Below are positions 3,156-51,570 of a stretch of DNA of 64,000 nucleotides, piece after piece. A model generated the notes under the pieces. The model had not been told where the DNA came from. It saw only the letters and a program-made list of their open reading frames with translations, and searched no databases. The first letter of the stretch is position 1, and the number at the start of each line of letters is the position of its first letter. The position numbers and the translations under genes are program-made. The DNA is from Phyllobates terribilis (lineage: Eukaryota): positions 303,118,001 through 303,182,000 of the forward strand of contig NW_027362761.1 of NCBI RefSeq assembly GCF_046119375.1, read 5' to 3'.

Positions 3156-3422
3156 TTAATCACTTCGCACCAGAGCCTGTTTTTGCCTTCGTGACCGGGC
3201 CAATTTTTTCAATTCTGACCACTGTCAATTTATGAAGTAATTACTCTGGAACGCTTCAACGTATTCCCCTGATTCTGAGAATGTTTTTTCGTGACATATT
3301 GTACTTCATGATACTGGTAAAATTTCTTCGATATAACTTGTAACGGGTCTGGGAGGTGGAACCTCTGAGCTACGATACAAAGGGGCAGTCCTTGTAAGGA
3401 AGCGGGTGGCTCCCAGGGTAGG

Positions 3423-4035
3423 CGGGCAGGTAGTCACGGCAAGTGACGGGGACAGTCTCTGGGTAGAAGGGCAGGAGGTCACGGCAAGTGACGGGGACAG
3501 TCTCTGGGTAGGGGGGCAGGAGGTCACGGCAAGTGACGGGAACAGTCTCTTGACAGGCGGGTGGTCAAGGCAAGTGACAGCGAAGCCTACAGATAGGCTA
3601 GCAGGCGGGTAGCAGGTGGACGCTCCCAGGTGAGCGGGCAAGAGTCTCTGGACAGGCAGGTGGTCACAGCAGGTGACGGCAGAGCCTCCAGGTAGGCTAG
3701 CAGGCAGGTAGCAGGCGGATGCTCCCAGGTGAGCGGGTAAGAGTCTCTGGACAGGCAGGTGGTCACAGCACGTGACGGCAGAGCCTCCAGGTAGGCTAGC
3801 AGGCAGGTAGCAGGCGGAAGCTCCCAGGTGAGCGGGTAAGAGTCTCTGGGCAGGCAGGTGGTCACAGCACGTGACGGCAGAGCCTCCAGGTAGGCGAGCA
3901 GGCAGGTAGCAGGCGGACGCTCCCAGGTGAGCGGGTAAGAGTCTCTGGGCAGGCAGGTGGTCACAGCACGTGATGGCAGAGCCTCCAGGTAGGCTAGCAG
4001 GCAGGTAGCAGATGAGCACTCCCAGGTGAGCGGGA
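3423..4035. repeat. LTR-internal tandem arrays: about 3 x 45 bp and 4-5 x 99 bp
   Basis: 15-aa (GQEVTASDGDSLWVE) and 33-aa periodicity in overlapping frames. The same arrays occur at about 13630-14240. Confidence 0.9.
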
Positions 4036-4252
4036 AATCAGATCCATAGACAGACTGGCAGGGCTGGTAGGCAGACTGTCGGACCGCAGGAATGCAAGTA
4101 GATAGACAAGTATCAGGCAGGTATCAAGCAGGAATCTGGCAGGTAACTGGCAGGTAACTGGCAGGTAACTGGTAACGGGACCTGAGGGCTGAAGCAGAGT
4201 GATAGACTATGCAACAACTTTGCTCGGGCACCTCCATTTTGGAGGAGGTGCC

Positions 4253-4259
4253 TTATATA
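4253..4259 (-). promoter_or_regulatory. TATA box of the chromovirus LTR (copy at 14462-14468 in the 5' LTR)
   Basis: TATATAA on the minus strand, starting 30 nt upstream of the 11-mer complementary to the PBS; CCAAT just upstream in this copy. Confidence 0.7.
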
Positions 4260-4293
4260 TGGTGAGGTCCTCCGGCCATTGGCCGGGGACTCC

Positions 4294-6867
4294 TTAGGAC
4301 GGCGCGCAGGAGCGGGAGGAGGACGCCGGGCACGGAGCGGAGAGGTGAGGGGAACAGTGTCCCTGCCTAGCAGGAGGCAGGGACGCCGACGCTACAGTAC
4401 CCCCCCCTTTAGGCCCCCCCTTTTTTAGGCCAGACAGAAATTTATCAAGGATGAGAGGGGCATGGATGTTCTCCCGGGGCTCCCAAGTTCTCTCCTCAGG
4501 ACCAAACCCCTTCCAATCCACTAGAAAAAAGGTCTTTCCTCTTACCCTTTTGGTGGCCAGAATGTTCTCTACCTCAAACTCGTTTTCAGCGGAAACCGGA
4601 GCAGGAGGCGTACCTGTAGACTTGGAAAAAGAGTTAAGTACCACGGGTTTGAGGAGAGATACATGGAAGGAGTTAGGGATCCGCAAGTTGGCCGGGAGTT
4701 TCAATTTATAGGCCACTGGGTTGATTTGTTTGATAACTTCCAGTGGGCCGATGAACCGAGGCCCTAACTTGTAGGAAGGAATCTTGAGCCGGACATACTT
4801 GAACGAGAGCCAGACTTTATCTCCAGGACGGAATTGTGGAGAGTCCAGGCGTTTTTTGTCAGCGTGTCTTTTCTTCTGCTCGGACGACTGAAGGAGTGCG
4901 GATCGGGTACTCTCCCAAATGGAGGAGAATTCGCTAACGAGAGATTCCGCAGCCGGATTGTCCACCGAGGTGGAGACGGGAAAAGGGATCCGAGGATGCT
5001 GACCGAAGACTACAAAAAACGGGGATTTGGAGGAAGATTCGCTCTCGTGATTATTGTAAGAGAACTCGGCCCATGGTAGGAGATCCACCCAGTCCGAATG
5101 GTGGGCATTAACAAAGTGCCGGAGGTAACTGGTCAGGATCTGATTGATCCGCTCCACTTGACCATTGGACTGTGGGTGGTAAGCGGAGGAGAAGTCCAGG
5201 GTGACGTCCAGCAGCTTACATGTGGCTCTCCAGAAGCGTGAGGTGAACTGAACCCCACGATCCGACACGATGTGGAGGGGCAGGCCATGGAGACGGAAGA
5301 TGTGGCGGATAAAGTCTTTAGCCAGCTCGGGTGCAGACTGGAGGCCCGGCAGGGGAATGAAGTGAGCCATCTTGGAAAAGCGGTCAGCGACCACCCAAAT
5401 GACCGTACACCCAGCAGAGACAGGGAGATCCGTTATAAAGTCCATAGCTATATGCTGCCATGGGGCAGCAGGTACTGGAAGAGGAAGGAGGCGACCGGCT
5501 GGCAGATGTCTCGGAACCTTGTTGCGGGCGCAGGACACACAGGCTGAAACAAAGTCTATTACGTCCTTGTGCAGGGTAGGCCACCAGTAATGCCGGGTAA
5601 TAAGCTGGAGGGTCTTTTTCTGACCGGCGTGGCCAGCTAGCTTAGACGAGTGACCCCAGTGTAGGATCTTCTTCCGATCAGGTACTGTTACGAACGTCTT
5701 ACCGGGAGGGAGACGATTTAGATTCACGGGGGCCACCTGCATTACTCTGGCGGGATCAATGATGTGCTTAGGCTCCTCCTCTAGATCAGACACCAGGAAG
5801 GATCGGGACAAGGCGTCAGCTTTGATGTTTTTGTCTGCCGGGCGAAAATAAAGAACGAAATCAAAGCGGGCAAAAAACAAGGACCACCGGGCTTGGCGCG
5901 GGTTAAGTCTCTGGGCGCTCTGGAGGTAAGCCAAGTTCTTGTGGTCCGTGTAAATAATTACCAGGTGAAGAGCCCCCTCGAGCAGGTAACGCCACTCCTC
6001 CAGTGCCAGCTTAATGGCCAATAACTCTCGGTCTCCTATAGAATAATTGCGCTCAGAAGGGGAGAAGAGTTTGGAGAAGAAGCCGCAAGTTACCATTCTT
6101 CCGGAAGACGACTTTTGGGTAAGTACCGCTCCGGCTCCAAAGGAGGAGGAGTCCACTTCCAGGAAGAATTGTTTGTTGCCGTCCGGACGATGCAGCACCG
6201 GGACGGAAGAGAAAGCCTGTTTTAAGGAAAGAAAGGCTTCCTCTGCTTCAGGCGGCCATTCTCTGGGATTAGTGCCCTTACGGGTGAGCGCAGAGATTGG
6301 GGCAGTCCAGGAAGAGAAGTGCGGTATGAAGAGGCGGTAGTAGTTGGCGAAGCCCAGGAACTGCTGAATAGCCTTCAACCCCTCTGGTTGGGGCCACTTC
6401 TGGATGGCAGACAGTTTCTCAGAATCCATTCGTAGGCCGGTCTGAGAGATTATGTAGCCCAAGAACGGAAGCGAGGTCTGCTCAAAGAGGCACTTCTCAT
6501 ATTTAGCGTAGAGGTGGTTCTGCCTGAGCCTGAGCAGGACCTCACGAACATCCCTCCGGTGAGTGAGAAGATCCAGAGAGAAGACCAAGAGGTCGTCCAG
6601 GTACACCACTACGCAGGAGTAGAGAAGGTCCCGGAAGATGTCATTGACCAACTCTTGAAAGACGGCGGGAGCGTTACAGAGACCGAAGGGCATTACCAGA
6701 TATTCATAGTGGCCGTCCCGGGTGTTGAATGCCATCTTCCATTCATCCCCCTGATGGATACGGACCAGGTTATACGCCCCACGGAGGTCCAGCTTGGTGA
6801 AGATTCTAGCCCCCCTCAGACGGTCAAATAATTCCGGAATGAGCGGAAGGGGGTATTTATTCTTCAC
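4294..6867 (-). pseudogene. pol: Pol: RT, RNase H, integrase (HHCC, DDE, GPY/F) and chromodomain; open here but cut off from protease by a frameshift
   Basis: YLDD, LEVDSS, H..H/CVSC, MDF, D-RGVQF, GQVER, GPRFIGP and chromodomain FEVENIL...VDWKGFGPEERTWEP. FFFVKRRT at about 6925 restores to VKKKDGSLRPCIDY by adding one A. Confidence 0.95.
4397..4430 (-). other. Polypurine tract of the chromovirus
   Basis: Minus strand AAAAAAGGGGGGGCCTAAAGGGGGGGGTAC immediately precedes the 3' LTR. Confidence 0.85.
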
Positions 6868-6893
6868 CGTGATCTGGTTAAGGCCTCTATAGT

Positions 6894-7660
6894 CTATACA
6901 GGGACGGAGTGAGCCGTCCTTCTTTTGACGAAGAAGAAGCCTGCTCCCGCCGGGGAGGTCGATTTCCGGATAAATCCCCGGGACAGATTCTCCTCAATAT
7001 ATTCAGACATGGACCGGGTCTCAGCAGCGGACAAAGGGTAAATACGCCCACGGGGAGGAGTAGCGCCGGGCATCAGGTCGATTGGGCAGTCATATGGTCT
7101 ATGAGGGGGTAATGTCTCTGCCTCCTTTTTATTAAAGACGTCCGCATAAGACCAATAGGGAACCGGAAGACCAGGTAGATTGGCTGGGGTAGGAGAAGGA
7201 CGGACAGGATGGACGGGAACTAAACAAGTCTTATGGCAGTCCTGTCCCCAGCGAAGGACTTCTCCGGTCTGCCAATCAAGCACGGGTGCATGTTTCTGAA
7301 GCCAAGGTAGGCCTAGCAAGAGGGCGTGAGAGAGTCCAGGCAGAACATGAAAGAAGATGCTCTCAGAGTGCAGCATTCCCACCTGCAGGGTTATGGATTC
7401 GGTGATGAGTTGGATGGGATGTGGTAAGAGGCCCCCATCTACGGCAGCGACAGACAAGGGTACAGCTAGAGGTTTGGTGGGAATGCGGTATTTCTCTACC
7501 AGGGACTGAGAAATGAGATTTCCGGCAGCTCCAGAGTCAAGTTGGGCTAGTTCAAAATAACGGTTCTCCCCGCAGATGATAAAGACCGACAGCAGCAGAG
7601 ATGGAGACGGTTTACTCTTGTCTAGGACGACCTCTCTGAGCGATCCTAGACACAGGCGTT
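6894..7660 (-). pseudogene. pol: Aspartic protease and RT N-terminus in the -1 frame relative to gag
   Basis: The -1 frame is open from the slippery site and reads ...LAQLDSGAAGNLIS..., then LLLGLPWLQKHAPVLDW and PYDCPIDL. Confidence 0.88.
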
Positions 7661-7664
7661 TCCC
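7619..7664 (-). promoter_or_regulatory. -1 ribosomal frameshift signal: GGGAAAC heptamer plus downstream stem
   Basis: GGGAAAC at 7658-7664 (minus), a 5-nt spacer, then TGTCTAGGA pairing perfectly with TCCTAGACA (7644-7652 with 7619-7627). Confidence 0.8.
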
Positions 7665-8597
7665 GACCTCTCCGGGCAGGAACGGATCCGGTGCTCCTTA
7701 CTGCCACAGTAGAAGCAGCTCCCCTCGGCTCGGCGTAACTCTTGACGGGTCTTGACCATCTTGGTCTGGTAGACCTGCATAGGCTCGGGTGAGTGCGCCT
7801 GTTGGAGTAGCGGGAGAAGTGACAGGTTTCTGAAAGGTAGGGGCTAGACGTGGAAACCTCCTCTCACGGGTGACTTCTTTGGCGCGTTCCTGGAACCGGA
7901 TGTCAATCTGGGTGGCAAGAGTTATTAAGTTGTCGAGAGTGGTAGGTATGTCCCGACCGGCGAGTTCATCTTTAATACGGCCGGACAGACCCTCCCAAAA
8001 GACAGACACCAGAGCGTCGTTATCCCAGGCAAGCTCCGAAGCAAGGGTACGGAACCGTATGGCATATTGGCCCACGGTGAGATTTCCTTGATGGAGGCGT
8101 AGCAGAGATGATGCGGATGAGGTCTTCCGTCCGGGTTCGTCGAAGACTTCAGGGAAAGCCGTGAGAAAGGCTGGCCGGTTGGACACCAGGGGGTCTCCTC
8201 TCTCCCATAGAGGATTTAGCCAAGCCAGTGCCTCCCCCGTGAGATGGGACATGATGAAGGCTACTTTGGCCCGGTCGGAGATAAACTGGTGGGACAGGAG
8301 TTCAAAGTGCAGGGTGCACTGGTTTATGAAGCCCCGAGCTTGAGCGGGATCGCCTCCGAAGTGAGGAGGTGCAGAAAGCCGGGGTCCGGGGCAGGATGCC
8401 ATGGTATTGGTGGGCAGCGGCGCTGCCGGGCTGTGAGTCATGACACTAGCGGTGGTTGCTGGTGGAGCAGTCAGAGTATCCAGGCGAGAGTTGACATTCC
8501 GCAGATGACTCAGGATGGACTCCTGTTGGGACCTCTGACGGGACAGTTCATGACATAGGTCCGAGAGCGAGGGAGCTTGGGTGCCACCGGGTTCCAT
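7646..8597 (-). pseudogene. gag: Gag (PEG10/RTL-like capsid plus CCHC knuckle) with one net frameshift near 7790-7810
   Basis: ATG at 8597 (MEPGGTQ), RGFINQC..F, KVAFIMSHLTGEALAW, LHQGNLTVGQYAIRFRTLA; after a frame change, PEPMQV...CFYCGSKEHRIRSC then GNACV-stop. Confidence 0.92.
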
Positions 8598-8598
8598 G

Positions 8599-8609
8599 GC
8601 CCGAGCAAA
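8599..8609 (-). other. Self-priming primer-binding site (not tRNA-type)
   Basis: Minus strand TTTGCTCGGGC, 1 nt from the 5' LTR. It is complementary to GCCCGAGCAAA found 30 nt downstream of the LTR TATA box (4219-4229). Confidence 0.8.
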
Positions 8610-8674
8610 CTGTAACGGGTCAGGGAGGTGGAACCTCTGAGCTACGATACAAAGGGGCAGTCCTTGTAAGGAAG

Positions 8675-9922
8675 TGTAGCACCCTGAGGATTCGGCTGCT
8701 ACAGGAGTATTGCACCTCAACCCAGAGGTGTGATATTCCACTCCCGGGTAAGGATGGAGTGTGGAGCTGAGCTCAGAAGGCTGCATGCACTACACACATC
8801 CCATTTCCGGAGGGCAGACCAACGGTACTCCCACTTAGAAATGTGCAGGTACGACCGAGTCTGTCCTTGGCTGGAGTGGGAGGGGGGTGGACCATCCCAG
8901 TAGTGTAGGGGCAGATAGGGGGAGCAGTCTGGGTAGTGCTAGGAGCTCATTGGGTGCTGGTCACCTGAGCTCACACATAGAGGGAGTATAAAAGGTGGGA
9001 ACCATCTAAGATCAGGGTCAGTCAGTGAGACGTCAGACAGGCAGACAGCAGTCAGTCAGCCTGTTGTAGTGAAGACTTTGCAGAGCAGTGGAAGAAAGCA
9101 GAGGAGCAGAGCAGCCCCAGGCCCAGAGTGAGAGAGGAGAGAACGAAAGACCCAGAGGGGGAGAAAGAAGGAACTCTGAGAGCCCAAACTAAATCTAAGG
9201 GTGAAGAGTTGGCAACAGGGTACCGGATCCCAAACTGGTGGGGGCTACAGCATACCTCAGCCAGAGACCGGAGGCCGTGGGCAGCATCTGCCACGGCCAC
9301 CCACCAAATCCACCCGGAAGGCAGACCACGCATAGGGTCAGGGAACCCAGAGGCAAGGGTTCGCCAACAAGAGGCCCGAGGGAGCCGGACATAGGTGGAT
9401 CCCTGGTGGGGAAGGCCAGAGACGAGGACAGGACAGAAAGGGAGCTCAGAACCACGCTCCAGAACTACTTGGGGGTTGGCCGAGTCCAGGACCTGGTGGA
9501 CGCAGCACGGCTCGGGTGGTCACTCAAGGCCGGAGTGACCGGTACAAGAACAGCAGTAAGTAAAGAACCCTGAACTGCACAACCCGACTCTGACTCTCAT
9601 TACCATCTTCCCTGCACTTCCACAACCACCATCCTCTGCACCTGACCCCCTGAGGCTATACCCCTCCCGTTGGGGGTTATACTACCCTAAGCTGCACAAA
9701 CACCATCAACCTCAGCGGACCCTCCTGCAGCGGCGGCCGTAGTGACCGCAATTCAACGGGTGGTGTAGTCGACATAAAGAACTTTAGTAACATCAGTAAG
9801 GACTGCCACACACTGAGCTTGACACCCTGGGCACGGACCGGGTCACAGCCACTCGGAGACTACAACCCCCATCTGATCCGGCTCCGGGTATCCCCAACAA
9901 CACTGGCCCAGGGGGCGCGTCA
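8675..9922 (+). repeat. 5' LTR of the cold-shock-domain element
   Basis: Direct repeat of 12361-13607 with about six differences counted by eye; TATAAAA at 8987-8993 and candidate poly(A) signal AGTAAA at 9559-9564. Confidence 0.95.
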
Positions 9923-9926
9923 ACTT

Positions 9927-9945
9927 TGGCGTAGTCGGCAGGATT
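9927..9945 (+). other. Primer-binding site complementary to the tRNA-Ser 3' end
   Basis: TGGCGTAGTCGGCAGGATT is the reverse complement of AATCCTGCCGACTACG-CCA, the 3' end of vertebrate tRNA-Ser(AGA-type) as recalled; it lies 4 nt after the LTR. Confidence 0.88.
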
Positions 9946-10140
9946 ACGTGCCCGCAACAACCGGGTACTGCGTGCCTGAAGAAAAGTACATCGTTACCTT
10001 AAAAAAGAAGTCTCCTGCCGGTTCCGGAGGGTCCCCGCCATCGGGCCCCATCACAGGTCGTTTCCCGCCGGTTGTCCGCCATTTGCAACTTTTTCCCGCC
10101 ATTTCCAAAGATTTCCCGCCTTGGAAGAGCGGACGCCATT

Positions 10141-11901
10141 ATGGGCGTGCCAGAGGGTGGCAAGAGGCCACCTCCCATCGTGGGCCAGGTCGAAGAATGG
10201 CGCCAAAAGCGGAAACCGCGCCCACCAACAGAGACTGTGATGCTGGAAGTGTCCATCAGCGTAAGAGAACTGCCCCTGGAACTGAAGTTGCCCCGGGACC
10301 ACCCTCGATGTGGGCGGAGACAGAAGAAGAGAGCAAAGATGGGTGTCGCCTGGAGCAGTCTGGAGAGAGCGCACCCGGAGACAAGACGTCTGGAAGAGAG
10401 TCCAGAGAGAGCCTACCCGGAGATGGAGGGAGAGCCAGGCAGCACCGACCCAGCGGTCAGGAGCCTGATGCGGGCCGCCACTCCAGGCAGCACCGACCCA
10501 GTGGTCAGGAGCCTGTTGCAGGTCGCCACTCCAGAAGGCCTGCTGGAGGTCCTAACACAGCTCCCCCGAGACCGGGAGTGTGTACAGACCGCGTTGGAGG
10601 GCCTCGCACAGAGGTTGGCCTGGGTGCAGCGAGAGACGTTGGCGGAGTGGAGCCGAGAGATGGCCCAGCAGACAAGAACCCGTCAGCGGAGCACGCCACC
10701 CGAGACGAGGAGACAGACCGCCTCTGAGGATGGCGCAGGAGGACTGAAGGCCGGAGACGGCGCCGAGAAGGGAGCCGAACGAAAGGAGGCAGGTAAAGGG
10801 GACGTCTCTACCCCAAACCGGGAAACCGCGTACCTGCCCCAGCTCCCCGTCGCAGAGCCCGAAGTATCCCCTGCCGTGCCCGTCGCTGCAACGTCACCGC
10901 CGCAGACTAGGCCTCAAACGGGAGCCGCGACCCCTGTGACGTCACACGCCTCGACCCCGAGCGTGACCAAGCAGGAAGTACCATCGGCCTGGTCGCAAGG
11001 CCTAGTACCCCTGGGCGACGCAATACCAACAGCGCCCCCTACCTCCGCGGAGCCCCCGGCCTGGTCGCAGGGCCAAGTAACACAGGGCGCCGCCGTCCTT
11101 ACGGTGCCCTTTACTTTCAAAGTGCCCCAAGCCTGGTCGCAAGGCTTGGGCAACCCGGGCGCCGCTACCACCACAGCGCCCGTAACATCAAGAGTGCCGC
11201 ACCTGGGTGAAGACCTGTTCGCCCAACATACGTGCCCGGATGAGCAGCCCTTCATGTGGCCACCGGAGTTTCACCATCCCCGACTCCGGAAAGAGAGACC
11301 CCTAGACGAACCCCTGATCCCGGCTCCAAAGCCCATAAAGAGGATCTCGCCCCCGCTAGAAGAGACCCAGTTTGAGTGGGACCCCACCGGAGAAGACCTC
11401 ATGGGGTTCACTCAGGAGACTCGGGCAGCCGCAGCGGAGCGTGCAGAGTGCTGCCGCCAGCAGCTCGAGGTCTTTGAGAGGGAGCGGAGAGAGAGGCGGG
11501 TCCGGGAACAACAAGCCCAAATAAGGAGCGCGGAGCAGAAGAGCCGGACCAGGAGAGACCCCCGTGCAGCGCATGGTCCCCGTACCATCGGGACTGTGAT
11601 AAAATTTAATCTGCAGCATGGGTGGGGTTTCATCAGGGATCACCGCACCCCAGGCGACGTCTTCGTGACCAGGAGAGACGTTGAGTCCCACCTACCGGAG
11701 GGACACAGAGGTCGTGACCTGTATTTAGGGGACGAGGTCACCTTCACCCGGCACAAGTGTGCCAAAGGACCCTACGCCCTCCATGTGCATCGCCTGACGG
11801 AGGAGGAGCTGCGGTGTGAGGAGGAGCAAGAGGACCCGGACGGGTCTGAACCAGAACCTGGAACCAATCACAAAGAAAGAGCAGGAGGACGCCGTCGTTG
11901 A
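10141..11901 (+). CDS. 586-aa protein: helical N-terminus, Pro/Thr/Ala-rich repeats, coiled coil, C-terminal cold-shock domain (about 11581-11796), acidic/basic tail
   Basis: Uninterrupted ORF (first ATG 10141; the track's 10072 start is TTG). GTVIKFN...GWGFI...DVFVT...LYLGDEVTF...KGPYALHV follows the CSD pattern GxVKWFN/RNP1 GYGFI/RNP2 DVFVH/L..G..V.F/KG..A..V. Confidence 0.85.
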   Translation: MGVPEGGKRPPPIVGQVEEWRQKRKPRPPTETVMLEVSISVRELPLELKLPRDHPRCGRRQKKRAKMGVAWSSLERAHPETRRLEESPERAYPEMEGEPGSTDPAVRSLMRAATPGSTDPVVRSLLQVATPEGLLEVLTQLPRDRECVQTALEGLAQRLAWVQRETLAEWSREMAQQTRTRQRSTPPETRRQTASEDGAGGLKAGDGAEKGAERKEAGKGDVSTPNRETAYLPQLPVAEPEVSPAVPVAATSPPQTRPQTGAATPVTSHASTPSVTKQEVPSAWSQGLVPLGDAIPTAPPTSAEPPAWSQGQVTQGAAVLTVPFTFKVPQAWSQGLGNPGAATTTAPVTSRVPHLGEDLFAQHTCPDEQPFMWPPEFHHPRLRKERPLDEPLIPAPKPIKRISPPLEETQFEWDPTGEDLMGFTQETRAAAAERAECCRQQLEVFERERRERRVREQQAQIRSAEQKSRTRRDPRAAHGPRTIGTVIKFNLQHGWGFIRDHRTPGDVFVTRRDVESHLPEGHRGRDLYLGDEVTFTRHKCAKGPYALHVHRLTEEELRCEEEQEDPDGSEPEPGTNHKERAGGRRR

Positions 11902-12351
11902 GTACGGTAGTATAGAGACTGTATATAGTTGCCCGTCGGGGCACAGTGAACCGTTGCTGCTAATATAGTCCCCGTTGGGACCAGAGAACTGAACTGTTAA
12001 CCCGTGTGTCCCTATTCCCACTGACCGAGGACTGAGAACGGTCAATCCTCCCTAATACCTGGCCGAGGACTGAGAGCGGCCATATCCCCTTGTATATAGT
12101 TGCGCTTCCTAAAGCGCCCCCTACCGGTTTTATGGGAAACTGTTTGATTCCAGGAGAGACTGTCGCACTTTACCCGGTCACAAGTTGCACCGTGACCGGA
12201 GGAGCTAGGAGCAAGAAACGACTACGAGAAAGTTTATATGAAAAGTTTATGCTGATATGTATGATGTTTTATATGTTTATGTTTATGAAAAAAATTGTAT
12301 GTTTTGGTGTTTTTTTATATCTTACAGCCCGAGGACGTGCTGTGATTTACC

Positions 12352-12360
12352 AGGGGGGAA
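12352..12360 (+). other. Polypurine tract of the cold-shock-domain element
   Basis: AGGGGGGAA directly abuts the 3' LTR TG at 12361. Confidence 0.8.
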
Positions 12361-13607
12361 TGTAGCACCCTGAGGATTCGGCTGCTACAGGGGTATTGCA
12401 CCTCAACCCAGAGGTGTGATATTCCACTCCCGGGTAAGGATGGAGTGTGGAGCTGAGCTCAGAAGGCTGCATGCACTACACACATCCCATTTCCGGAGGG
12501 CAGACCAACGGTACTCCCACTTAGAAATGTGCAGGTACGACCGAGTCTGTCCTTGGCTGGAGTGGGAGGGGGGTGGACCATCCCAGTAGTGTAGGGGCAG
12601 ATAGGGGGAGCAGTCTGGGTAGTGCTAGGAGCTCATTGGGTGCTGGTCACCTGAGCTCACACATAGAGGGAGTATAAAAGGTGGGAACCATCTAAGATCA
12701 GGGTCAGTCAGTGAGACGTCAGACAGGCAGACAGCAGTCAGTCAGCCTGTTGTAGTGAAGACTTTGCAGAGCAGTGGAAGAAAGCAGAGGAGCAGAGCAG
12801 CCCCAGGCCCAGAGTGAGAGAGGAGAGAACGAAAGACCCAGAGGGGGAGAAAGAAGGAACTCTGAGAGCCCAAACTAAATCTAAGGGTGAAGAGTTGGCA
12901 ACAGGGTACCGGATCCCAAACTGGTCGGGGCTACAGCATACCTCAGCCAGAGACCGGAGGCCGTGGGCAGCATCTGCCACGGCCACCCACCAAATCCACC
13001 CGGAAGGCAGACCACGCATAGGGTCAGGGAACCCAGAGGCAAGGGTTCGCCAACAAGAGGCCCGAGGGAGCCGGACATAGGTGGATCCCTGGTGGGGAAG
13101 GCCAGAGACGAGGACAGGACAGAAAGGGAGCTCAGAACCACGCTCCAGAACTACTTGGGGGTTGGCCGAGTCCAGGACCTGGTGGACGCAGCACGGCTCG
13201 GGTGGTCACTCAAGGCCGGAGTGACCGGTACAAGAACAGCAGTAAGTAAAGAACCCTGAACTGCACAACCCGACTCTGACTCTCATTACCATCTTCCCTG
13301 CACTTCCACAACCACCATCCTCTGCACCTGACCCCCTGAGGCTATACCCCTCCCGTTGGGGGTTATACTACCTAAGCTGCACAAACACCATCAGCCTCAG
13401 CGGACCCTGCTGCAGCGGCGGCCGTAGTGACCGCAATTCAACGGGTGGCGTAGTCGACATAAAGAACTTTAGTAACATCAGTAAGGACTGCCACACACTG
13501 AGCTTGACACCCTGGGCACGGACCGGGTCACAGCCACTCGGAGACTACAACCCCCATCTGATCCGGCTCCGGGTATCCCCAACAACACTGGCCCAGGGGG
13601 CGCGTCA
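12361..13607 (+). repeat. 3' LTR of the cold-shock-domain element
   Basis: Direct repeat of 8675-9922. Confidence 0.95.
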
Positions 13608-16096
13608 GAAGCGGGTGGCTCCCAGGGTAGGCGGGCAGGTAGTCACGGCAAGTGACGGGGACAGTCTCTGGGTAGAAGGGCAGGAGGTCACGGCAAGTGA
13701 CGAGGACAGTCTCTGGGTAGGGGGGCAGGAGGTCAAGGCAAGTGACGGGAACAGTCTCTTGACAGGCGGGTGGTCACGGCAAGTGACGGCGAAGCCTCCA
13801 GATAGGCCAGCAGGCGGGTAGCAGGTGGACGCTCCCAGGTGAGCGGGCAAGAGTCTCTGGACAGGCAGGTGGTCACAGCAGGTGACGGCAGAGCCTCCAG
13901 GTAGGCTAGCAGGCAGGTAGCAGGCGGACGCTCCCAGGTGAGCGGGTAAGAGTCTCTGGACAGGCAGGTGGTCACAGCACGTGACGGCAGAGCCTCCAGG
14001 TAGGCTAGCAGGCAGGTAGCAGGCGGACACTCCCAGGTGAGCGGGTAAGAGTCTCTGGGCAGGCAGGTGGTCACAGCACGTGACGGCAGAGCCTCCAGGT
14101 AGGCTAGCAGGCAGGTAGCAGGCGGACGCTCCCAGGTGAGCGAGTAAGAGTCTCTGGGCAGGCAGGTGGTCACAGCACGTGACGGCAGAGCCTCCAGGTA
14201 TTCTAGCAGGCAGGTAGCAGATGAGCGCTCCCAGGTGAGAGGGGAACCAGATCCATAGACAGACTGTCTGGGCTGGTAGGCAGACTGTCGGACCGCAGGA
14301 ATTCAAGTAGATAGACAAGTATCAGGCAGGTATCAAGCAGGAATCTGGCAGGTAACTGGCAGGTAACTGGCAGGTAACTGGTAACGGGACCTGAGGGCTG
14401 AAGCAGAGTGATAGACTATGCAACAACATTGCTCGGGCACCTCCATTTTGGAGGAGGTGCCTTATATATGGTGAGGCCGGGGACTCCTTAGGACGGCGCG
14501 CTCGGCCCCTTTAAGAGAGGGGGAGCGCGCGCCCTAAGCACAGTGGCCGGGAAGCAGCGCGCGCTGCCAGCAGAGCGGGAGGAGGACGCCGGGCACGGAG
14601 CGGAGAGGTTAGGGGAACAGCGTCCTTGCCTAGCAGGAGGCAGGGACGCCGACGCTACATAACTTACGTTTATTTATGAAAAAATCGGAAATTTGGCGAA
14701 AATTTTGAAAATGTTGCAATTTTCTAACTTTGAATTTTCATACCCTTAAATCAGAGAGATGTGTCACAGAAAATAGTTAATAAATAACATTTCCCACATG
14801 TCTACTTTACATCAGCACAATTTTGGAACCAAAATTTTTTTTTGTTAGGGAGCTATAAGGGTTAAAAGTTGACCAGCGATTTCTCATTTTTCCAACAAAA
14901 TTTACAAAAACATTTTTTTAGGGACCACATCATATTTGAAGTCACTTTGAGGGGTCTTTATGACAGAAAATACCAAAAAGTGACACCATTCTAAAAACTG
15001 CACCCCTCAAGGTGCTCAAAACCACATTCAAGAACTTTATTAACCCTTCAGGTGCTTCACAGGAATTTTTGGAATGTGGAAGAAAAAAATTAACATTTAA
15101 CTTTTTTCACAAAAATGTTACTTTAGACCCAATTTTTTCTATTTTCACAGGGGTAACAGGAAAAAATGGACCCCAATTTTTTTTGTGCAATTTCTCTTGA
15201 GCGTGCTGATACCCCATATGTGAGGGAAATCCACTGTTTGGGCGCACTGCAGGGTTCGGAAGGTAAGGAGCGCCATTAGACTTTTTGAATATAAAATTTG
15301 TCTGAATAATTAGCAGACGCCATGTTGCGTTTGGAGAGCTCCTGATGTGCCTAAACAGTGGAAACCCCCCACAAGTGACACCATTTTGGAAACTAGACCC
15401 CTTAGGGAACTTATCTAGATGTGTGGTGAGCGCCTTGAACCCCAAGGTGCTTCACAGAAGTTTATAATATTGAGCTGTAAAAATAGAATTTTCACATTTT
15501 TCCCACAAAAACGTTTTTCATCCCTTAATTTTGCATTATCATAAAGGTAATAGGATAAATTGCACCATGAAATTTGTTGTGCAATTTCTCCTGAGTACGC
15601 TGATACCCCATATGTGGGGGAAAACCACTGCTTTGGTGTACGGCAGGGTTCGGAAGAGAAAGGAGCGCTATGTTGGCTGGGATAGGTGGCAGACACCATG
15701 TCACATTTGAAGAGTCGCTGACATGGCAGAGCTGGAGGCGGTCATGTGACCTCCAGCTGCTATAGCAACCCCAGGTCCTGGAAGGAATCTGAGGTCTTCG
15801 GAGTTAAGTAAGACGACCCCCTCTCCTCCTGCTGTCTGCTATATGCCGTGATCACTATAGATCGCAGCATATAGAAGACAGCAAAGGGTTAACATCACTG
15901 GGACCTGATCCAATCAGGTCCCGATGATGTTCCCTGTCAGAGCTAATGCTCTGCACCGGAATCGCAGCGCTTGCAGGACCCTGGGGGTCCTGAGCGCTGC
16001 AAGACCACCCACCGTTTTTAAACGTCCGCGCTGCACAGAGCCCAGGCAGCGCGGACGTTTATGTACAGTGGGCGGTCGGGAACCGGTTAAGCATTA

Positions 16097-18390: not shown

Positions 18391-20009
18391 CAGTACAGAC
18401 CAAAAGTTTGGACACACCTTCTCATTTAAAGATTTTTCTGTATTTTCATGACTATGAAAATTGTACATTCACACTGAAGGCATCAAAACTATGAATTAAC
18501 ACATGTGTTATTATATACTTAAAATTGTGAAACAACTGAAAATATGTCTTATATTCTAGGTTCTTCAAAGTAGTCACGTTTTGCTTTGATGACTGCTTTG
18601 CAAACTCTTGGCATTCTCTTGATGAGCTTCAAGAGGTAGTCACCTGAAATGGTCTTCCAACAATCTTGAATGAGTTCCCAGAGATGCTTAGCACTTGTTG
18701 GCCCTTTTGCCTTCACTCTGCGGCCCACCTCACCCCAAACCATCTCGATTGGGTTCAGGTCTGGTGACTGAGGAGGCCAGGTCATCTGGCGTAGCACCCC
18801 ATCACTCTCCTTCTTGGTCAAATAGCCCTTACACAGCCTGGAGGTGTGTTTGGGGTCATTGTCCTGTTGAAAAATAAATGATGGTCCAACTAAACGCAAA
18901 CCGGATGGAATAGTATGCCGCTGCAAGATGCTGTGGTAGCCATGCTGGTTCAGTATGCCTTCAATTTTGAATAAATTTCCAACAGTGTCACCAGCAAAGC
19001 ACTCCCACACTATCACACCTCCTCCATGCTTCACGGTGGGAACCAGGCATGTAGAGTCCATCCGTTCACCTTTTCTGCGTCGCACAAAGACACGGTGGTT
19101 GGAACCAAAGATCTCAAATTTGGACCCATCAGACCAAAGCACAGATTTCCACTGGTCTAATGTCCATTCCTTGTGTTCTTTAGCCCAAACAAGTCTCTTC
19201 TGCTTGTTGCCTGTCCTTAGCAGTGGTTTCCTAGCAGCTGTTTTACCATGAAGGCCTGCTGCACAAAGTCTCCTCTTAACAGTTGTTGAAGAGATGTGTC
19301 TGCTGCTAGAACTCTGTGTGGCATTGACCTGGTCTCTAATCTGAGCTGCTGTTAACCTGCGATTTCTGAGGCTGGTGACTCGAATAAACTTATCCTCAGA
19401 AGCAGAGGTGACTCTTGGTCTTCCTTTCCTGGGGCGGTCCTCTTGTGAGCCAGTTTCTTTGTAGCGCTTGATGGTTTTTGCAACTGCACTTGGGGACACT
19501 TTCAAAGTTTGCCCAATTTTTCGGACTGACTGACCTTCATTTCTTAAAGTAATGATGGCCACTCGTTTTTCTTTATTTAGCTGCTTTTTTCTTGCCATAA
19601 TACAAATTCTAACAGTCTATTCACTAGGACTATCAGCTGTGTATCCACCTGACTTCTGCACAACAAAACTGATGGTCCCAATCCCACTTATAAGGCAAGA
19701 AATCCCACTTATGAAACCTAACAGGGCACACCTGTGAAGTGAAAACCATTTCCAGTGACTACCTCTTGAAGTTCATCAAGAGAATGCCAAGAGTGTGCAA
19801 AGCAGTCATCAAAGCAAAAGGTGGCTACTTTGAAGAACCTAGAATATAAGACATATTTTCAGTTGTTTCACACTTTTTTGTTAAGTATATAATTCCACAT
19901 GTGTTAATTCATAGTTTTGATGCCTTCAGTGTGAATGTACAATTTTCATAGTCATGAAAATACAGAAAAATCTTTAGATGAGGTGTGTCCAAACTTTTGG
20001 TCTGTACTG
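18391..20009 (-). mobile_element. Tc1/mariner DD38E (Intruder-type) transposon with about 264-bp TIRs
   Basis: TA-flanked CAGTACAGACCAAAAGTTTGGACACAC termini; TIRs 18391-18653 and 19745-20009. Confidence 0.95.
18549..19598 (-). CDS. DD38E transposase, 349 aa, full length but with substitutions at conserved sites
   Basis: 38 residues counted between QQD and PIE; GRPR present. WSDGSK, HGGG-V and VWECF differ from WSDESK, HGGGGV and WGC in the copy at 36949. Confidence 0.85.
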   Translation of the reverse strand: MARKKQLNKEKRVAIITLRNEGQSVRKIGQTLKVSPSAVAKTIKRYKETGSQEDRPRKGRPRVTSASEDKFIRVTSLRNRRLTAAQIRDQVNATQSSSSRHISSTTVKRRLCAAGLHGKTAARKPLLRTGNKQKRLVWAKEHKEWTLDQWKSVLWSDGSKFEIFGSNHRVFVRRRKGERMDSTCLVPTVKHGGGVIVWECFAGDTVGNLFKIEGILNQHGYHSILQRHTIPSGLRLVGPSFIFQQDNDPKHTSRLCKGYLTKKESDGVLRQMTWPPQSPDLNPIEMVWGEVGRRVKAKGPTSAKHLWELIQDCWKTISGDYLLKLIKRMPRVCKAVIKAKRDYFEEPRI

Positions 20010-23868: not shown

Positions 23869-25591
23869 ATGTCACACTCATCCCAAACTCGCTATTCAGC
23901 GGAGGAGGCATACGCTTTTCTTGCCTCCAACACTGACAGCGAGGATCCCACCTTTCTTTATTTTTCTGATTCTTTGTCGTCCTCCTCTTCATCCTCTTCT
24001 TCCCCCTCCTCTTCCTCCTCTTCCTCCTCAGGTGCTGCTGAACCGCCACACAGATGCCCCGGGAGATAAGATGAACCAGCGCCCCCCACTACTGACCCAG
24101 TATGGACCTCGCCCCCTGAAAATTATGAGCCACTTTCGTGGCGGAATCAGGAATCAAGTTTGACACCACCGGTCTCACAGAAATAAACTTTTTCAAAATC
24201 TTTTTCTCTGAGGATTTCGTAAACCTCATGGTGGGCCAAATTAATTTATACACTCATCAATTTTTTGAACAAAACCCCTCTTCATAATTTTCTAACTGGT
24301 CTCCTGTAGACACAGTAGAAATAATGAAGTTTTGAGGCCTGGTCCTTCATATGGGGATCCTGAAGAAGCCAGAACTTCAGCAATACTGGAGTGTTGACTT
24401 TTTGTATAACACTCCAGTGTTCCGAATGGTCATGACCCGGAAATGTTTTGAGGCCATCCAGAAGTTCTTGCATTACAATGATAATGCAAGGTGTCCTGCA
24501 CGCGATGACCCGAACTTTGATCGTCTTTTCAAAGGTCGGCTGGTCATCGACCACTTCAACAATAAGTTTGCTGAAGTGCCCCAAAGGGACATCTGTGTGG
24601 ATGAGTCCTTAATCCATTTTAAGGGGCGGCTTGGATTCCGACAGTACCTGCCCAGTAAGAGGGCCAGATACGGAATCAAGCTGTATAAACTTTGTGAAAG
24701 TACCTCAGGGTATACTCACAAGTTTAGAGTTTATGAAGGGAAGGACTCCCGGATTGAACCCCCTGAATGCCCCCCTGTTCTGGGAGTGAGTTGGAAAATT
24801 GTGTGGGACTTGGTGCACCCACTGCTGGATAAAGGTTATCACCTGTACGTGGATAACTTTTATTCCAGTGTCCCTCTCTTCAAGTCCCTCTCTGCGTGAT
24901 GTACCACAGCCTGCGGTACTGTCTGCAAAAATCAGAGAGGCCCCCTAAGATGATACTTGGGCAGCTGCTCAGAAGGGGTGAAAGCAGAGCCCAATGTAGC
25001 GACCACCTTCTGGTGGTCAAGCACAAGGACAAGAGGGATGTCTTTTTCTTGACCACCATACATGGTGATGGCAGCACCCTCAGCACTGTACGAGGTTCCA
25101 CTACACAGGTCATCAAACCAGACTGTGTAGTGGGGTACAACAAGTACGTTGGGGTAGCTGATCACTCTGATCAACTCCTCCAGCCATACAGTGCTTTGAG
25201 AAAGGCCAAGGTGTGGTGCAAGAAGTTGGCCATGCACATTGTACAGATGGCAATGCACAATGCTTTCCTTTTGTCACAATGTGCAGGCCAGACTTCTACG
25301 TCGTACCTTCACTTCCAGGAGGTAGTTATCAAGGCCCTGATATTTGGCAGTGGTGACGGAGCAGGCCCGAGTACTTCCGGAACTGAAGGACCTTGAATTG
25401 TACCAGGCCAGCATTTCCTGGGGCAGATCCCTCACAGCGGAAAAAAAGGTAAGTCACAAAAGAAGTGTCGAGTATGTTATAAAAGGGGAATATGCAAGGA
25501 CACCATTTATCAATATGACACTTGCCCCAACAAACCTGGCCAGTGCATGAAAGAATGCTTCAAAAGGTACCATACTTCTTTGGACTACTAA
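23869..25591 (+). pseudogene. piggyBac transposase, multiple frameshifts and stops
   Basis: MSHSSQTRYSAEEA, DICVDESLIHFKGR, YGIKLYKLCES, YVDNFY, DHSDQ, VWCKKL and a C-terminal Cys-rich domain ending CFKRYHTSLDY-stop. Confidence 0.92.
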
Positions 25592-32406: not shown

Positions 32407-33959
<1,553 letters not shown>

Positions 33960-36948: not shown

Positions 36949-38570
36949 CAGTACAGACCAAAAGTTTGGACACACCTTGTCATTTAAAGATTTTTCTGTA
37001 TTTTCATGACTATGAAAATTGTACATTCACAATGAAGGCATCAAAACTATGAATTAACACATGTGGAATTATATACTTAACAAAAAAGTGTGAAACAACT
37101 GAAAATATGTCTTATATTCTAGGTTCTTCAAAGTAGCCACCTTTTGCTTTGATGACTGCTTTGCACACTCTTGGTATTCTCTTGATGAGCTTCAAGAGGT
37201 AGTCACCGGAAATGGTCTTCCAACAATCTTGAAGGAGTTCCCAGAGATGCTTAGCACTTGTTGGCCCTTTTGCTTCACTCTGCGGTCCAGCTCACCCCAA
37301 ACAATCTTGATTGGATTCAGATCTGGTGACTGCGGAGGCCAGGTCATCTGGCGTAGCACCCCATCACTCTCCTTCTTGGTCAAATAGCCCTTACACAGCC
37401 TGGAGGTGTGTTTGGGGTCATTGTCCTGTTGAAAAATAAATGATGGTCAAACTAAACGCAAACCGGATGGAATAGCATGCCGCTGCAAGATGCTGTGGTA
37501 GCCATGCTGGTTCAGTATGCCTTCAATTTTGAATAAATCCCCAACAGTGTCACAGTAAAGCACCCCCACTCCATCACACCTCCTCCTCCATGCTTCACGG
37601 TGGGAACCAGGCATGTAGAGTCCATCCGTTCACCTTTTCTGCGTCGCACAGACACGGTGGTTGGAAACAAAGATCTCAAATTTGGACTCATCAGACCAAA
37701 GCACAGATTTCCACTGGTCTAATGTCCAATCCTTGTGTTCTTTAGCCCAAACAAGTCTCTTCTGCTTGTTGCCTGTCCTTAGCAGTGGTTTCCTAGCAGC
37801 TATTTTACCATGAAGGCCTGCTGCACAAAGACTCCTCTTAACAGTTGTTGTAGAGCTGTGTCTGCTGCTAGAACTCTGTGTGGCATTGACCTGGTCTCTA
37901 ATCTGTGCTGCTGTTAACCTGCGATTTCTGAGGCTGGTGACTCGGATAAACTTATCCTCAGAAGCAGAGGTGACTCTTGGTCTTCCTTTCCTGGGGCGGT
38001 TCTCATCTGAGCCAGTTTCTTTGTAGCGCTTGATGGTTTTTGCAACTGCACTTGGGGACACTTTCAAAGTTTGCCCAATTTTTCGGACTGACTGACCTTC
38101 ATTTCTTAAAGTAATGATGGCCACTCGTTTTTCTTTACTTAGCTGCTTTTTTCTTGCCATAATATAAATTCTAACAGTCTATTCAGTAGGACTATCAGCT
38201 GTGTATCCACCTGACTTCTGCACAACACAACTGATGGTCCCAACCCATTTATAAGGCAAGAAATCCCACTTATTAAACCTGACAGGGCACACCTGTGAAG
38301 TGAAAACCATTTCTGGTGACTACCTCTTGAAGCTCATCAAGAGAATGACAAGAGTGTGCAAAGCAGTCATCAAAGCAAAATGTGGCTACTTTGAAGAACC
38401 TAGAATATAAGACATATTTTCAGTTGTTTCACACTTTTTTGTTAAGTATATAATTCCACATGTGTTAATTCATAGTTTTGATGCCTTCAGTGTGAATGTA
38501 CAATTTTCAAAGTCATGAAAATACAGAAAAATCTTTAAATGAGAAGGTGTGTCCAAACTTTTGGTCTGTA

Positions 38571-45490: not shown

Positions 45491-47222
45491 TTAGTAGTGC
45501 AAGGAAGTATGGTGCCTTCTGAAGCATTCTTTCATGCACAGTTCAGGTTTGTCGGGGCAGGTGTCGCATTGGTAAGTGATGTCCTTGCGTATTCCCCTTT
45601 TGGAACACACTCGGCACCTCTTTTGTGACTTACCTTTTTTTTCTGTTTGAGGGACCTCTCCTGGGAAATGCTGGCCTGGTACAAGTCGAGGTCCTTCAGT
45701 TCCGGAAGTATTCGGGCCCCCTCCGTCACCGCTGCCATATATCAGGGCCTTGACGACTACCTCCTGGAAGTGAAGATACGACGTAGAAGTTTGGCCTGCA
45801 CATTGTGACAGAAGGAAAGCGTTGTGCATTGCCATCTGAACGATGTGCATGGCCAGCTTCTTATACCATACCTTGGCCTTTCTCACAGCACTGAAAGGAT
45901 GGAGGACTTGATCAGAGAGATCAACTCCCCCCATGTACTTGTTGTACCCCACTACACAGTCTGGTTTGACGACCTGTGTAGTGGAACCTCGTACAGTGCT
46001 GAGGGTGCTGCCATCACCATGGGTGGTGGTCAAGAGAAGAACATCCCTCTTGTCATTGTACTTGACCACCAACAGGTGGTCGCTACATTGGGCTCTGCTC
46101 TCACCCCTTGTGAGCAGCTGCCCAATTAGCGTCTTTGGGAGGCCTCTCTGATTTTTGCGGACAGTACCGCAGGCTGCGGTACATCACGCAGAGAGGGACT
46201 TGAAGACCGGGACGCTTGTATAAAAGTTATCCACGTAGAGGTGATAACCTTTATCCAGCAGTGGGAGCACCAAATCCCACACAATTTTCCCACTCACTCC
46301 CAGGACAAGGGGGGGGGCATTAAGGAGGTTGAATCCGGGAGTCCTTCCCTTCATAAACTCTAAACTTGTGAGTGTACTCTGAGGTATTCTCACACAGTTT
46401 ATACAGCTTGATTCCATACCTGGCCCTCTTACTGGGCAGGTACTGCCGGAATCTAAGCCGCCCCTTAAAATGGATTAAGGACTCATCCACGCAGATGTCC
46501 CTTTGGGGCACGTACACTTCAGCAAACTTGTTGAAGTGCTCGATGACCAGCCAAACTTTGAAAAGACAATCAAAGTTCGAGTCATCGCGTGCAGGACACC
46601 TTGCATTATCGTTGTAATGCAAGAACTTGTGGATGGCCTCAAAACGTTTCCGGGTCATGACCATTCGGAACACTGGAGTGTTATACAAAACATCAACACT
46701 CCAGTATTGCCGAAGTTCTGGCTTCTTCAGGATCCTCATATGAAGGACCAGGCCCCAAAACTTCATAATTTCTTCTGCGTCTACAGGAGACCAGTTAGAA
46801 AATGAGGAAGAGGGGTTTTGTTCCAAAAATTGATGAGTATACAAATTAATTTGGCCCACCATGAGGTTTACAAAATCCTCAGAGAAAAAGACTTTGAAAA
46901 AGTCTGTTTCTGTGAGGCCGGTGGTGTCAAACTTGATTTCTGATTCCGGCAAGAAAAGAGGAATCAGTGGCTCATAATTTTTGGGGGGTGAGGTCCATAC
47001 TGGATCATTAGTGGGGGGCGCTGGTTCATCTTCTCTCCTGGGGCGACTGTGTGGTGGTCCAGCAGCACCTGCGGAGGAAGAGGAGGAGGAAGAAGAAAAG
47101 GAGGAAGACAAGGAATCAGAAAAATAAAGAAAGGTGGGATCCTCGCCCTCGCTGTCAGTGTCGGAGGCAAGGAAAGCATATGCTTCCTCCGCTGAATAGC
47201 GAGTTTGGGATGAACGGGACAT
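45491..47222 (-). pseudogene. piggyBac transposase with premature stops and at least one frameshift
   Basis: ATG 47222; DICVDES, YVDNFYTS, GGVDLSDQ and C-terminal CRVC...CDTC...LC...CF..HH; stops at 46320-46322 and 46184-46186. Confidence 0.93.
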
Positions 47223-50001: not shown

Positions 50002-51570
50002 CAGTCATGGCCAAAAGTATTGAGAATGAGACAAATAGTAATTTTTCCAAAGTTTACTGCTTCATTTTTTGTAATGGCAATTTGCATATACTCCTGAATG
50101 TCAAAGAGTGATCAGCTTAACAGCAATTACTGTACTTGCAAAGTCAATATTTGCCCAGAAAATAAAATTTAACCCCCAAAACACATTTCAACATCATTGC
50201 AGTCCTGCCTTAAAAGGTGCAGCTAACATCGTTTTAGTGATTGATCCATTAACACAGGTGTGGTGTTGATGAGGACAGGGCTGGCGATCAATCAGTCATG
50301 ATTAAGTAAGAATAACATCACTGGACACTTTAAAAGGAGGCTGGTTCTTGGTATCATTGTTTCTCTTCAGTTAACCATGGTTATCTCTAAAGAAACACGT
50401 GCAGCCATCATTGCACTGCACAAAAATGGCCTAACAGGGAAGAGTATCGCAGCTACAAAGATTGCACCTCAGTCAACAATCTATCGCATCATCAAGAACT
50501 TCAAGGAGAGAGCTTCCATTGTTGTCAAAAAGGCTCCAGGGCGCCCAAGAAAGACCAGCAAGCGCCAGGACCGTATCTTAAAACTGTTTCAGCTGCGGGA
50601 TCGGACTACCAGCAGTGCCGAGCTTGCTCAGGAATGGCAGCAGGCTGGTGTGAGTGCTTCTGCACGCACTGTGAGGCGGAGACTCTTTGAGCAAGGGCTG
50701 GTTTCAAGGAGGGCAGCAAAGAAGCCACTTCTCTCCAGAAAAAACATCAGAGACCGACGGATATTCTGCAAAAGGTACAGGGAGTGGACTGCTGAGGACT
50801 GGGGCAAAGTCATTTTCTCTGATGAATCCCCTTTTCGATTGTTTGGGACATCTGGAAAACAGCTTATTCGGAGAAGAAGAGGTGAGCGCTACCACCAGTC
50901 TTGTCTCATGCCAACTGTAAAGCATCCTGAAACCATTCATGTGTGGGGTTGCTTCTCAGCCAAGGGAATCGGCTCACTCACAGTCTTGCCTAAAAACACA
51001 GCCATGAATAAAGAATGGTACCAGAATGTCTTCCAAGAGCAACTTCTCCCAACCGTCCAAGAGCAGTTTGGCGCCTAACAATGCCTTTTCCAGCATGATG
51101 GAGCACCTTGCCATAAAGCAAAGGTGATAACTAAATGGCTCATGGAACAAAACATAGAGATTTTGGGTCCATGGCCTGGAAACTCCCCAGATCTTAATCC
51201 CATTGAGAACTTGTGGTCAATCATCAAGAGACGGGTGGACAAACAAAAACCAACAAATTCTGGCAAAATGCAAGCATTGATTATGCAAGAATGGACTGCT
51301 ATCAGTCAGGATTTGGTCCAAAAGTTGATTGAGAGCATGCCAGGGAGAATTACAGAGGTCTTGAAGAAGAAGGGGCAACACTGCAAATATTGACTTGCTG
51401 CATTAACTCATTCTAACTGTCAATATAACCTATTGGTACTCATAATATGATTGCAATTATATTTCTGTATGTGATATAAACATCAGACAAACACTAATAA
51501 AAACCAGAGGCCAGCAGATCATGTGAAAATATAATTTTGGTGTCATTCTCAAAACTTATGGCCATGACTG
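50002..51570 (+). mobile_element. Tc1/mariner DD35E (Traveler-type) transposon, 1569 bp
   Basis: TA-CAGTCATGGCCA...TGGCCATGACTG-TA with TIRs of about 28 bp. Confidence 0.92.
50377..51393 (+). pseudogene. DD35E transposase interrupted by a single in-frame TAA (51076-51078)
   Basis: 50377-51078 and 51124-51393 are in one frame; FSDES, QHDGAPCH and [12 protein letters not shown], with 35 residues between D and E. Confidence 0.9.

Follow-up and report, generated by a model that had tools for sequence, protein, structure and literature searches.

The question raised by this locus is how a long terminal repeat (LTR) retroelement without any polymerase gene has been copied, and what is gained from the single gene that it carries. 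The element lies at 8675–13607 on the forward strand (4,933 nt overall) of a 64,000-nt stretch of the Phyllobates terribilis genome (contig NW_027362761.1, positions 303,118,001–303,182,000; hereafter the window), and its only open reading frame (ORF) encodes a 586-residue protein ending in a cold-shock domain (CSD). It is almost certainly a satellite LTR retroelement dependent on a Ty3/Gypsy helper; towards the whole explanation, in which the satellite is also served by a private RNA-coat protein, we lean with reserve.

The two LTRs (1248 and 1247 nt, TG...CA at the ends of both) are 5 substitutions and 1 indel apart. At a rate of 1–2e-9 substitutions per site and year, the difference would mean an insertion age of one to two million years. 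The primer-binding site (PBS) is complementary to the 3′ end plus CCA of tRNA-Ser(TGA) genes in the same genome; with ARAGORN, tRNA-Ser(tga) was found in 2 of 6 loci submitted, and a Ser gene in 0 of 6 of another locus set. The polypurine tract (PPT) ends at 12360. The target-site duplication (TSD) GAAG, present on both sides, is real, because the other LTR of the unrelated Gypsy element used as insertion target still holds the empty site with one GAAG (3399–3402). Reverse transcriptase (RT), ribonuclease H (RNase H), integrase (IN), protease (PR) and CCHC gave no Pfam match in the element; since PR, RT, RNase H and IN of pol are absent, it is not classed as an autonomous Ty3/Gypsy element. 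In the initial annotation, made from the letters of the window, it had been described as having LTRs differing at about 6 of 1248 sites, a 19-nt tRNA-Ser PBS, a PPT, a 4-bp TSD, none of these enzymes, no CCHC and no recognisable capsid, and a 586-residue ORF with coiled coil and CSD; each of these points was borne out, that on the capsid as a lack of detectable homology, absence not being proven.

The helper was discovered through one sampled copy adjoining a pol ORF whose LTR ends like that of the satellite. It is present in many near-identical copies (31 full-length matches at 99–100%; 32 candidates scored) and encodes a Gag of 330–364 residues (PNMA and CCHC matches weak, under the Pfam cut-offs) and a Pol of 1,402 residues with PR, RT, RNase H and IN. 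Both frames are open in 4 of the 17 copies examined, none of which gave a CSD match; pol was found in all 14 fetched sites with the helper-type (sister) LTR start and in 3 further copies. Helper and satellite share LTR 3′ end, junction, PBS and leader, the identity of the U5-PBS-leader module being 68% over 572 columns and 90–92% in the 60 nt counted from the PBS onward. A degenerate pattern for the junctions of helper and satellite matched 55,229 sites; among the first 100 listed, a helper-type start was counted by eye in 45. In a tree of the U5-PBS-leader (23 satellites, 11 helpers; rows without recognisable PBS omitted, i.e., 1 of 20 random satellites, 6 of 17 helpers, and 1 of 4 older copies), the two are interleaved, with 4 label changes forced by well-supported branches and helper monophyly rejected (approximately unbiased test, p 4.6e-5), whereas a control tree of PPT-U3 for the same 34 rows is cleanly split (1 change, support 100/100). 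Because the trees disagree, repeated template switching between co-packaged RNAs is the simplest reading. Mobilisation in trans we infer from the TSDs, the youth of the copies and this recombination only. The Gypsy element surrounding the satellite in the window was ruled out as helper, its LTR and PBS being different; an autonomous element bearing the CSD was found neither in the 17 helper copies nor in the 7 matches of a longer-protein search, which is weak evidence.

U5 also contains a second, PBS-like word, conserved in all satellites (19 of 19) and helpers (11 of 11) compared and located about 165 nt before the PBS; a short word complementary to it follows farther downstream in 19 of 19 and 10 of 11, respectively. 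It may provide a further contact for the tRNA or act as a structural switch. Elsewhere (L031, L034–L036, L108, L109, L112, L113), the PBS is lengthened by 25–45 further nt of tRNA-Ser copy, as left behind when reverse transcription proceeds into the primer.

Genome-wide (10.57 Gb), the 21-nt PPT-LTR junction of the satellite has 26,615 exact matches (control, 0), or ~129 Mb and ~1.2% of the genome at ~4.85 kb per copy, solo LTRs omitted. Sampling of every fifth of the first 100 sites listed, all from one contig end (n = 20), returned family members in 20 of 20 cases, with internal regions of 1.5–2.6 kb, LTR pairs 95–100% alike, and ORFs 38–88% identical to that of the window. Pol was inside none of these 20 and none of the 30 best copies. 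The CSD-coding 23-mer of the window occurs only 1,304 times genome-wide with ≤1 mismatch, so the window copy represents one subfamily of many. Its 30 closest copies (picked by similarity; two pairs are segmental duplicates) comprise 27 that are open from conserved start to end, 1 broken near the start, and 2 ending inside the CSD; 20 have exact 4-bp TSDs, 6 are arranged as 3 tandem pairs whose outer TSDs are exact, 3 show a single mismatch, and 1 has no TSD. Their LTRs differ by 2–9 substitutions per ~1,220 nt. Tandem LTR-internal-LTR-internal-LTR arrays with a common middle LTR were seen at L002/L003, L012/L013, L016/L017, L055, and L102, the first three pairs having a single TSD at their outer flanks.

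Purifying selection acts on the ORF. The ratio of nonsynonymous to synonymous substitution (dN/dS; pairwise Nei-Gojobori, 16 open copies: the window, 13 sampled, two older) is 0.35 for the ORF and 0.13 for the CSD (dS 1.10, bootstrap 0.07–0.16); by region, 0.23 for residues 371–480, 0.36 for 121–185, and 0.78 for 1–60. The two alternative frames gave 1.2 overall and 1.8–2.2 across the CSD, and 28 close copies 0.31 for the ORF and 0.10 for the CSD. With these values, and with 13 of the 20 sampled copies open through the CSD, an ORF broken or neutral in most copies, which the initial annotation had named as speaking against its own proposal, was not found. A passenger ORF, i.e., a captured host fragment open merely through copy youth or avoidance of nonsense-mediated decay, would agree with the few LTR substitutions in the 30 copies and with the 7 of 20 random copies that are broken or deleted; it is nevertheless very improbable, being largely refuted by dN/dS, as constraint is specific to domain and frame at dS >1 and recurs in a second family (CSD, 0.24), and related proteins are present in three frog families.

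The sole Pfam match of the ORF is the CSD (PF00313, residues 484–550, E 1.6e-7, 31.5 bits with the cut-off at 27). In an AlphaFold2 model built from six sequences, a five-strand barrel (residues 481–551) and long helices (145–182 and 425–472) are predicted, the rest being of low confidence (mean pLDDT 44.7). All 12 Foldseek matches at E ≤0.001 are cold-shock domains, and the barrel matches CspA and YBX1 structurally (CspA, TM 0.78 by target length). BFVD matches at E ≤0.001 are CSD proteins only; ESM Atlas gave leads under 0.8 only, and a search for shorter relatives of the protein no match. Compared with YBX1/YBX2, a profile built from 18 element CSDs needs no gaps, even in the loop of Y-box length, and reaches 57–59 bits; its scores against bacterial Csp (≤45 bits) and Lin28 (≤23 bits) are lower. 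On this ranking, made by profile score alone, a Y-box gene is the best candidate for the source of the captured domain. A tree of the element CSDs leaves the origin unplaced, since 1 of its 22 branches is well supported and a host YBX row is absent. Identity between element and Y-box CSDs is ~30%. RNP1 reads W-G-F-I in the window copy (among the aligned CSDs, Phe in 17 of 18, first-position aromatic in 16 of 18); RNP2 is aromatic in 18 of 18; an Arg-Arg after RNP2 and an aromatic pair (Trp-Tyr) in the last strand are new and conserved in element CSDs. Judged from these residues, the domain looks like a re-specialised binding surface. In Y-box proteins, the CSD is followed by a long C-terminal stretch of alternating charge. 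Here, only 33 residues follow and there is no such tail, so the protein is YBX-derived but not a Y-box protein.

For the N-terminus, no Pfam gag match and no BLASTP match to Gag were obtained, and hhalign of the element protein against a Gag alignment gave a probability of 0.3%; a second AlphaFold model was of low confidence, with a best VIA-align Z of 4.9 on a plain coiled coil. A hidden N-terminal capsid therefore finds no support from Pfam, BLASTP, profiles or structure, its absence not being proven. In many copies (L003–L030), the CSD frame is open from within U5 through the PBS (up to ~790 codons), and in some subfamilies an ATG stands just upstream of the LTR end. Logan record P0046 holds a 225-residue CSD protein whose domain looks intermediate between the Y-box and element types.

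A second CSD family was found by searching the genome with a relative from Bufo. Its LTRs (~1,020 nt) have no BLAST similarity to those of the window; it has the same tRNA-Ser PBS, 4-bp TSDs, an internal region of ~2.6 kb, and one ORF, which resembles the window ORF in the CSD only (41%). Its LTR-PBS junction occurs 859 times; a CSD was found in 12 of 12 sampled sites and own gag-pol in 0 of 12, and dN/dS of its CSD is that quoted above (8 copies). Its CSD frame likewise begins in the LTR. A third CSD type stands behind a different PBS at L092; this and L090 hold further CSD subtypes, nearer to the proteins of Bufo and Ranitomeya imitator. Relatives with a name belong to Phyllobates, two Ranitomeya species, Anomaloglossus, and Bufo bufo, spanning three frog families (dendrobatids, aromobatids, and bufonids), and three more are Logan records; the nearest named protein is from P. 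terribilis (72% identity). These relatives probably reside in LTR elements too. Xenopus, salamanders, and fish were not represented among 20 proteins looked up (19 of 64 matches plus one cluster member), which is weak evidence.

In the explanation towards which we lean, satellite RNA is, with high probability, packaged in helper particles, primed by tRNA-Ser, copied by helper RT, and integrated by helper IN with a 4-bp TSD. Co-packaging would allow the U5-PBS-leader to be swapped between the two, and through this swapping the satellite would stay matched to its helper. The protein would be a captured, re-specialised Y-box-type binder of single-stranded RNA, whose two coiled coils and long disordered linker may let it oligomerise and coat, with a preference in cis, its own coding RNA; the coated RNA would be stored and protected in the germ cell and would compete better for helper Gag. 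That the protein is such an oligomeric coat, acting in the germ line in favour of its own RNA, we rate at even chances, by analogy with host proteins and in a group of frogs, the poison frogs, whose ova are rich in Gypsy transcripts (PMC6278860): frog oocyte mRNA is masked by FRGY2 (PMC7825780), and MSY2 packages and stabilises mRNA in oocytes (PMC7226217). Constraint in a helper-dependent element suggests that the protein benefits mainly the lineage encoding it.

Several observations weigh against this explanation. Trp65, the stacking residue of Y-box proteins (PMC7226217), is present in 1 of 18 aligned element CSDs and the His that ends the RNP2 motif (PMC7825780) in 0 of 18; because both are lost, RNA binding may be weak or changed. 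No open frame to the CSD end is left in 7 of the 20 sampled copies, and dN/dS was computed from open copies, the omission of broken ones biasing it toward low values; the domain-specific pattern cannot be explained by this omission alone. Different deletions have removed the CSD from three sampled copies, which are no older than the rest, and two of these deletion junctions recur at 31 and 62 places on many contigs, which may partly reflect independent deletion at a microhomology. Because they recur, the CSD is unnecessary on the same RNA and does not act strictly in cis. Lastly, none of the 12 sampled sites of the second family yielded a helper for it; one of them held an antisense nested pol. 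The protein would accordingly be one that raises copy success without being essential, CSD-less derivatives still being mobile, probably with protein supplied in trans; a lasting quantitative advantage fits, because every diverged subfamily seen retains the CSD.

The spread of CSD-less derivatives would also suit a trans-acting silencing suppressor, binding small RNAs or shielding all element RNAs, those of the helper included, from piRNAs or decay, with the satellite then being a partner of the helper and not a parasite, as would the similar numbers of satellite and helper in the by-eye count and the retention of the domain by two unrelated LTR families. This we regard as unlikely: a pure public good in trans should decay lineage by lineage, yet dN/dS of the CSD is 0.13 over a dS of 1.1, and the domain is absent from the helper (17 of 17 copies). 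Somewhat less likely again is interference with the helper, in which the protein would bind helper RNA, e.g., at the common U5/leader, block its translation or packaging, and free particles, as viral satellites do. Y-box proteins repress translation (PMC7825780), the common U5-leader could be the target, and satellite copy number equals or exceeds that of the helper; but this module is present in the satellite too and is exchanged between the two, so that a protein directed at it could not distinguish them, and the helper is still abundant and young.

The recurrence of CSD-less forms bears as well on a chaperone of reverse transcription or cDNA, acting in the particle to anneal tRNA-Ser, to aid strand transfer or to bind single-stranded DNA, and supplementing or replacing nucleocapsid. 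YB-1 melts and anneals nucleic acids (PMC7226217), and the PBS-like word in U5 hints at a structural switch, which might be resolved by a chaperone; the same word is, however, present in the CSD-free helper, whose Gag has a CCHC knuckle, and CSD-less forms transpose, which leaves this role with a low probability, below that of interference. Of the overall interpretation in the initial annotation, the trans-mobilised satellite keeping a selected CSD protein of its own stood, upheld by the helper, dN/dS and recombination with the helper; the proposed replacement of nucleocapsid was weakened and is unlikely, because helper Gag supplies its own CCHC and CSD-less forms recur (the 31 and 62 places above).

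Neither the copy number nor the further CSD families had been noted in the initial annotation, which had also doubted that a CSD is found in LTR elements. This doubt is corrected by 46 bird endogenous retroviruses (ERVs) with a CSD captured several times and proposed to be adaptive (PMC12287698). They resemble the frog element as LTR retroelements with PF00313 and differ as retroviruses classed by RT in which the CSD is an addition, variable in position and little diverged from the Pfam model (E ~1e-24 in two table rows, against 1.6e-7 here); in the frog element, the CSD protein is the only gene, is selected, and is spread over more than 26,000 Gypsy-dependent copies. TRIMs (including Cassandra, Helenus, and Ajax) likewise have two LTRs, PBS, PPT, and TSD, lack RT, and are moved in trans, but are <1 kb and non-coding (PMC10886601); a 4,933-nt element with a selected ORF is no TRIM. 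Extra-ORF LTR retrotransposons of bdelloid rotifers also carry captured non-env genes across unrelated lineages, but their ORF3s (GDSL, DEDDy, or env-like) stand on gag-pol elements, and the word "cold" is absent from the available text (PMC5408684). Mammalian MaLRs are expressed in oocytes (PMC3983883) and, as high-copy, pol-less, germ-line active elements, are alike; they belong to the ERVs, not to Gypsy, and have no host-derived RNA-binding domain. In plants, TR-GAG and LARD are large, non-autonomous, pol-less LTR elements, of which TR-GAG keeps gag and LARDs have no conserved ORF; MaLRs have a single, gag-related ORF and depend on ERVL, a further likeness. In the frog element, no gag homology was found, unlike TR-GAG, and an ORF is present, unlike LARDs. 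With YBX1/YBX2/FRGY2 the element CSD shares the gapless alignment, the Y-box-length loop, and the Phe of RNP1 and RNP2; it differs in its C-terminal place behind coiled coils, the loss of Trp65 and the RNP2 His, and the new Arg-Arg and Trp-Tyr.

CSD capture by LTR elements, non-autonomous LTR elements, and extra ORFs are thus already in print. In the literature searched (Repbase, Dfam, and most subscription journals lay outside it), no report was found of an LTR element that lacks gag and pol and has a single gene, for a CSD protein; "cold shock" or "cold" has 0 occurrences in the available text of three frog genome papers (PMC12822217, PMC6278860, and PMC12208295), and PMC13583293 concerns a host gene only. 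Tentatively, and at slightly under even chances, we propose a class of coding Gypsy satellites, of an age sufficient to reach across dendrobatids, aromobatids, and bufonids, in which the domain that masks mRNA in the oocyte (Y-box CSD) became a private RNA coat; it would comprise several LTR families, each matched to its helper by U5-PBS swaps, make up more than 1% of the genome, and be the counterpart of a satellite virus with an accessory protein. Non-autonomous LTR elements are usually viewed as non-coding or gag-only leftovers; with a host-derived, strongly selected RNA-binding domain as sole gene, a protein other than a capsid or an enzyme can be of benefit to an element that depends on a helper. 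The survival of retroelement RNA through storage and silencing in the amphibian germ line, and its competition for particles, become testable. Surveys retaining only Ty3 copies with pol ORFs, as in PMC12822217, would miss such elements, and in one poison-frog study 62.6% of reads were unclassified repeats (PMC12208295). Gene annotation may be affected too, because the Bufo bufo relative bears the host-gene name "Y-box-binding protein 2-A-like".

Table 1 Features of the satellite element and its insertion site in the window. aa, amino acids.
Feature	Position	Strand	Basis or remark
Left TSD, GAAG	8671..8674	+	Empty-site comparison
5′ LTR, 1248 nt	8675..9922	+	
TATA-like box in 5′ LTR	8987..8993	+	Role inferred
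AGTAAA word in 5′ LTR	9559..9564	+	Role inferred
U5-PBS-leader module	9560..10100	+	Common to and exchanged with the autonomous helper
PBS-like second word in U5	9759..9770	+	3′ LTR counterpart 13444..13455
PBS, 19 nt, tRNA-Ser(TGA)	9927..9945	+	
Single ORF, 586 aa	10141..11901	+	Purifying selection
Helical region and coiled coil 1 (aa 104–182)	10450..10686	+	AlphaFold2, dN/dS (~0.36)
Linker rich in Pro/Ala/Thr (aa 186–390)	10696..11310	+	Predicted disordered
Coiled coil 2 (aa 425–472)	11413..11556	+	AlphaFold2; dN/dS 0.23 across aa 371–480
CSD, YBX-like (aa 481–551)	11581..11793	+	Pfam, AlphaFold2, Foldseek, profile comparison; dN/dS 0.13
Conserved motif, 3′ end = PPT	12346..12360	+	PPT end at 12360
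3′ LTR, 1247 nt	12361..13607	+	
Right TSD, GAAG	13608..13611	+	
Unrelated Ty3/Gypsy element, its 5′ LTR the insertion target	3339..14659	-	Context only

About 30 nt upstream of the 3′ LTR, a pyrimidine tract with CAG (12305–12334) is kept across subfamilies and looks, by its sequence, like a splice acceptor. The Gypsy element used as target has 99-nt tandem repeats in its LTRs, which are ~96% alike, and a frameshifted gag-pol, with a C-terminus that we take to be chromodomain-like. From translations of the window, we further assume several Tc1-like transposase ORFs, two of them nearly full length (18549–19616, 32590–33630, 37630–38178, and 50302–51078), two piggyBac-like remnants in inverted orientation (24336–25396 and 45491–47225), and L1-like fragments (391–2992).

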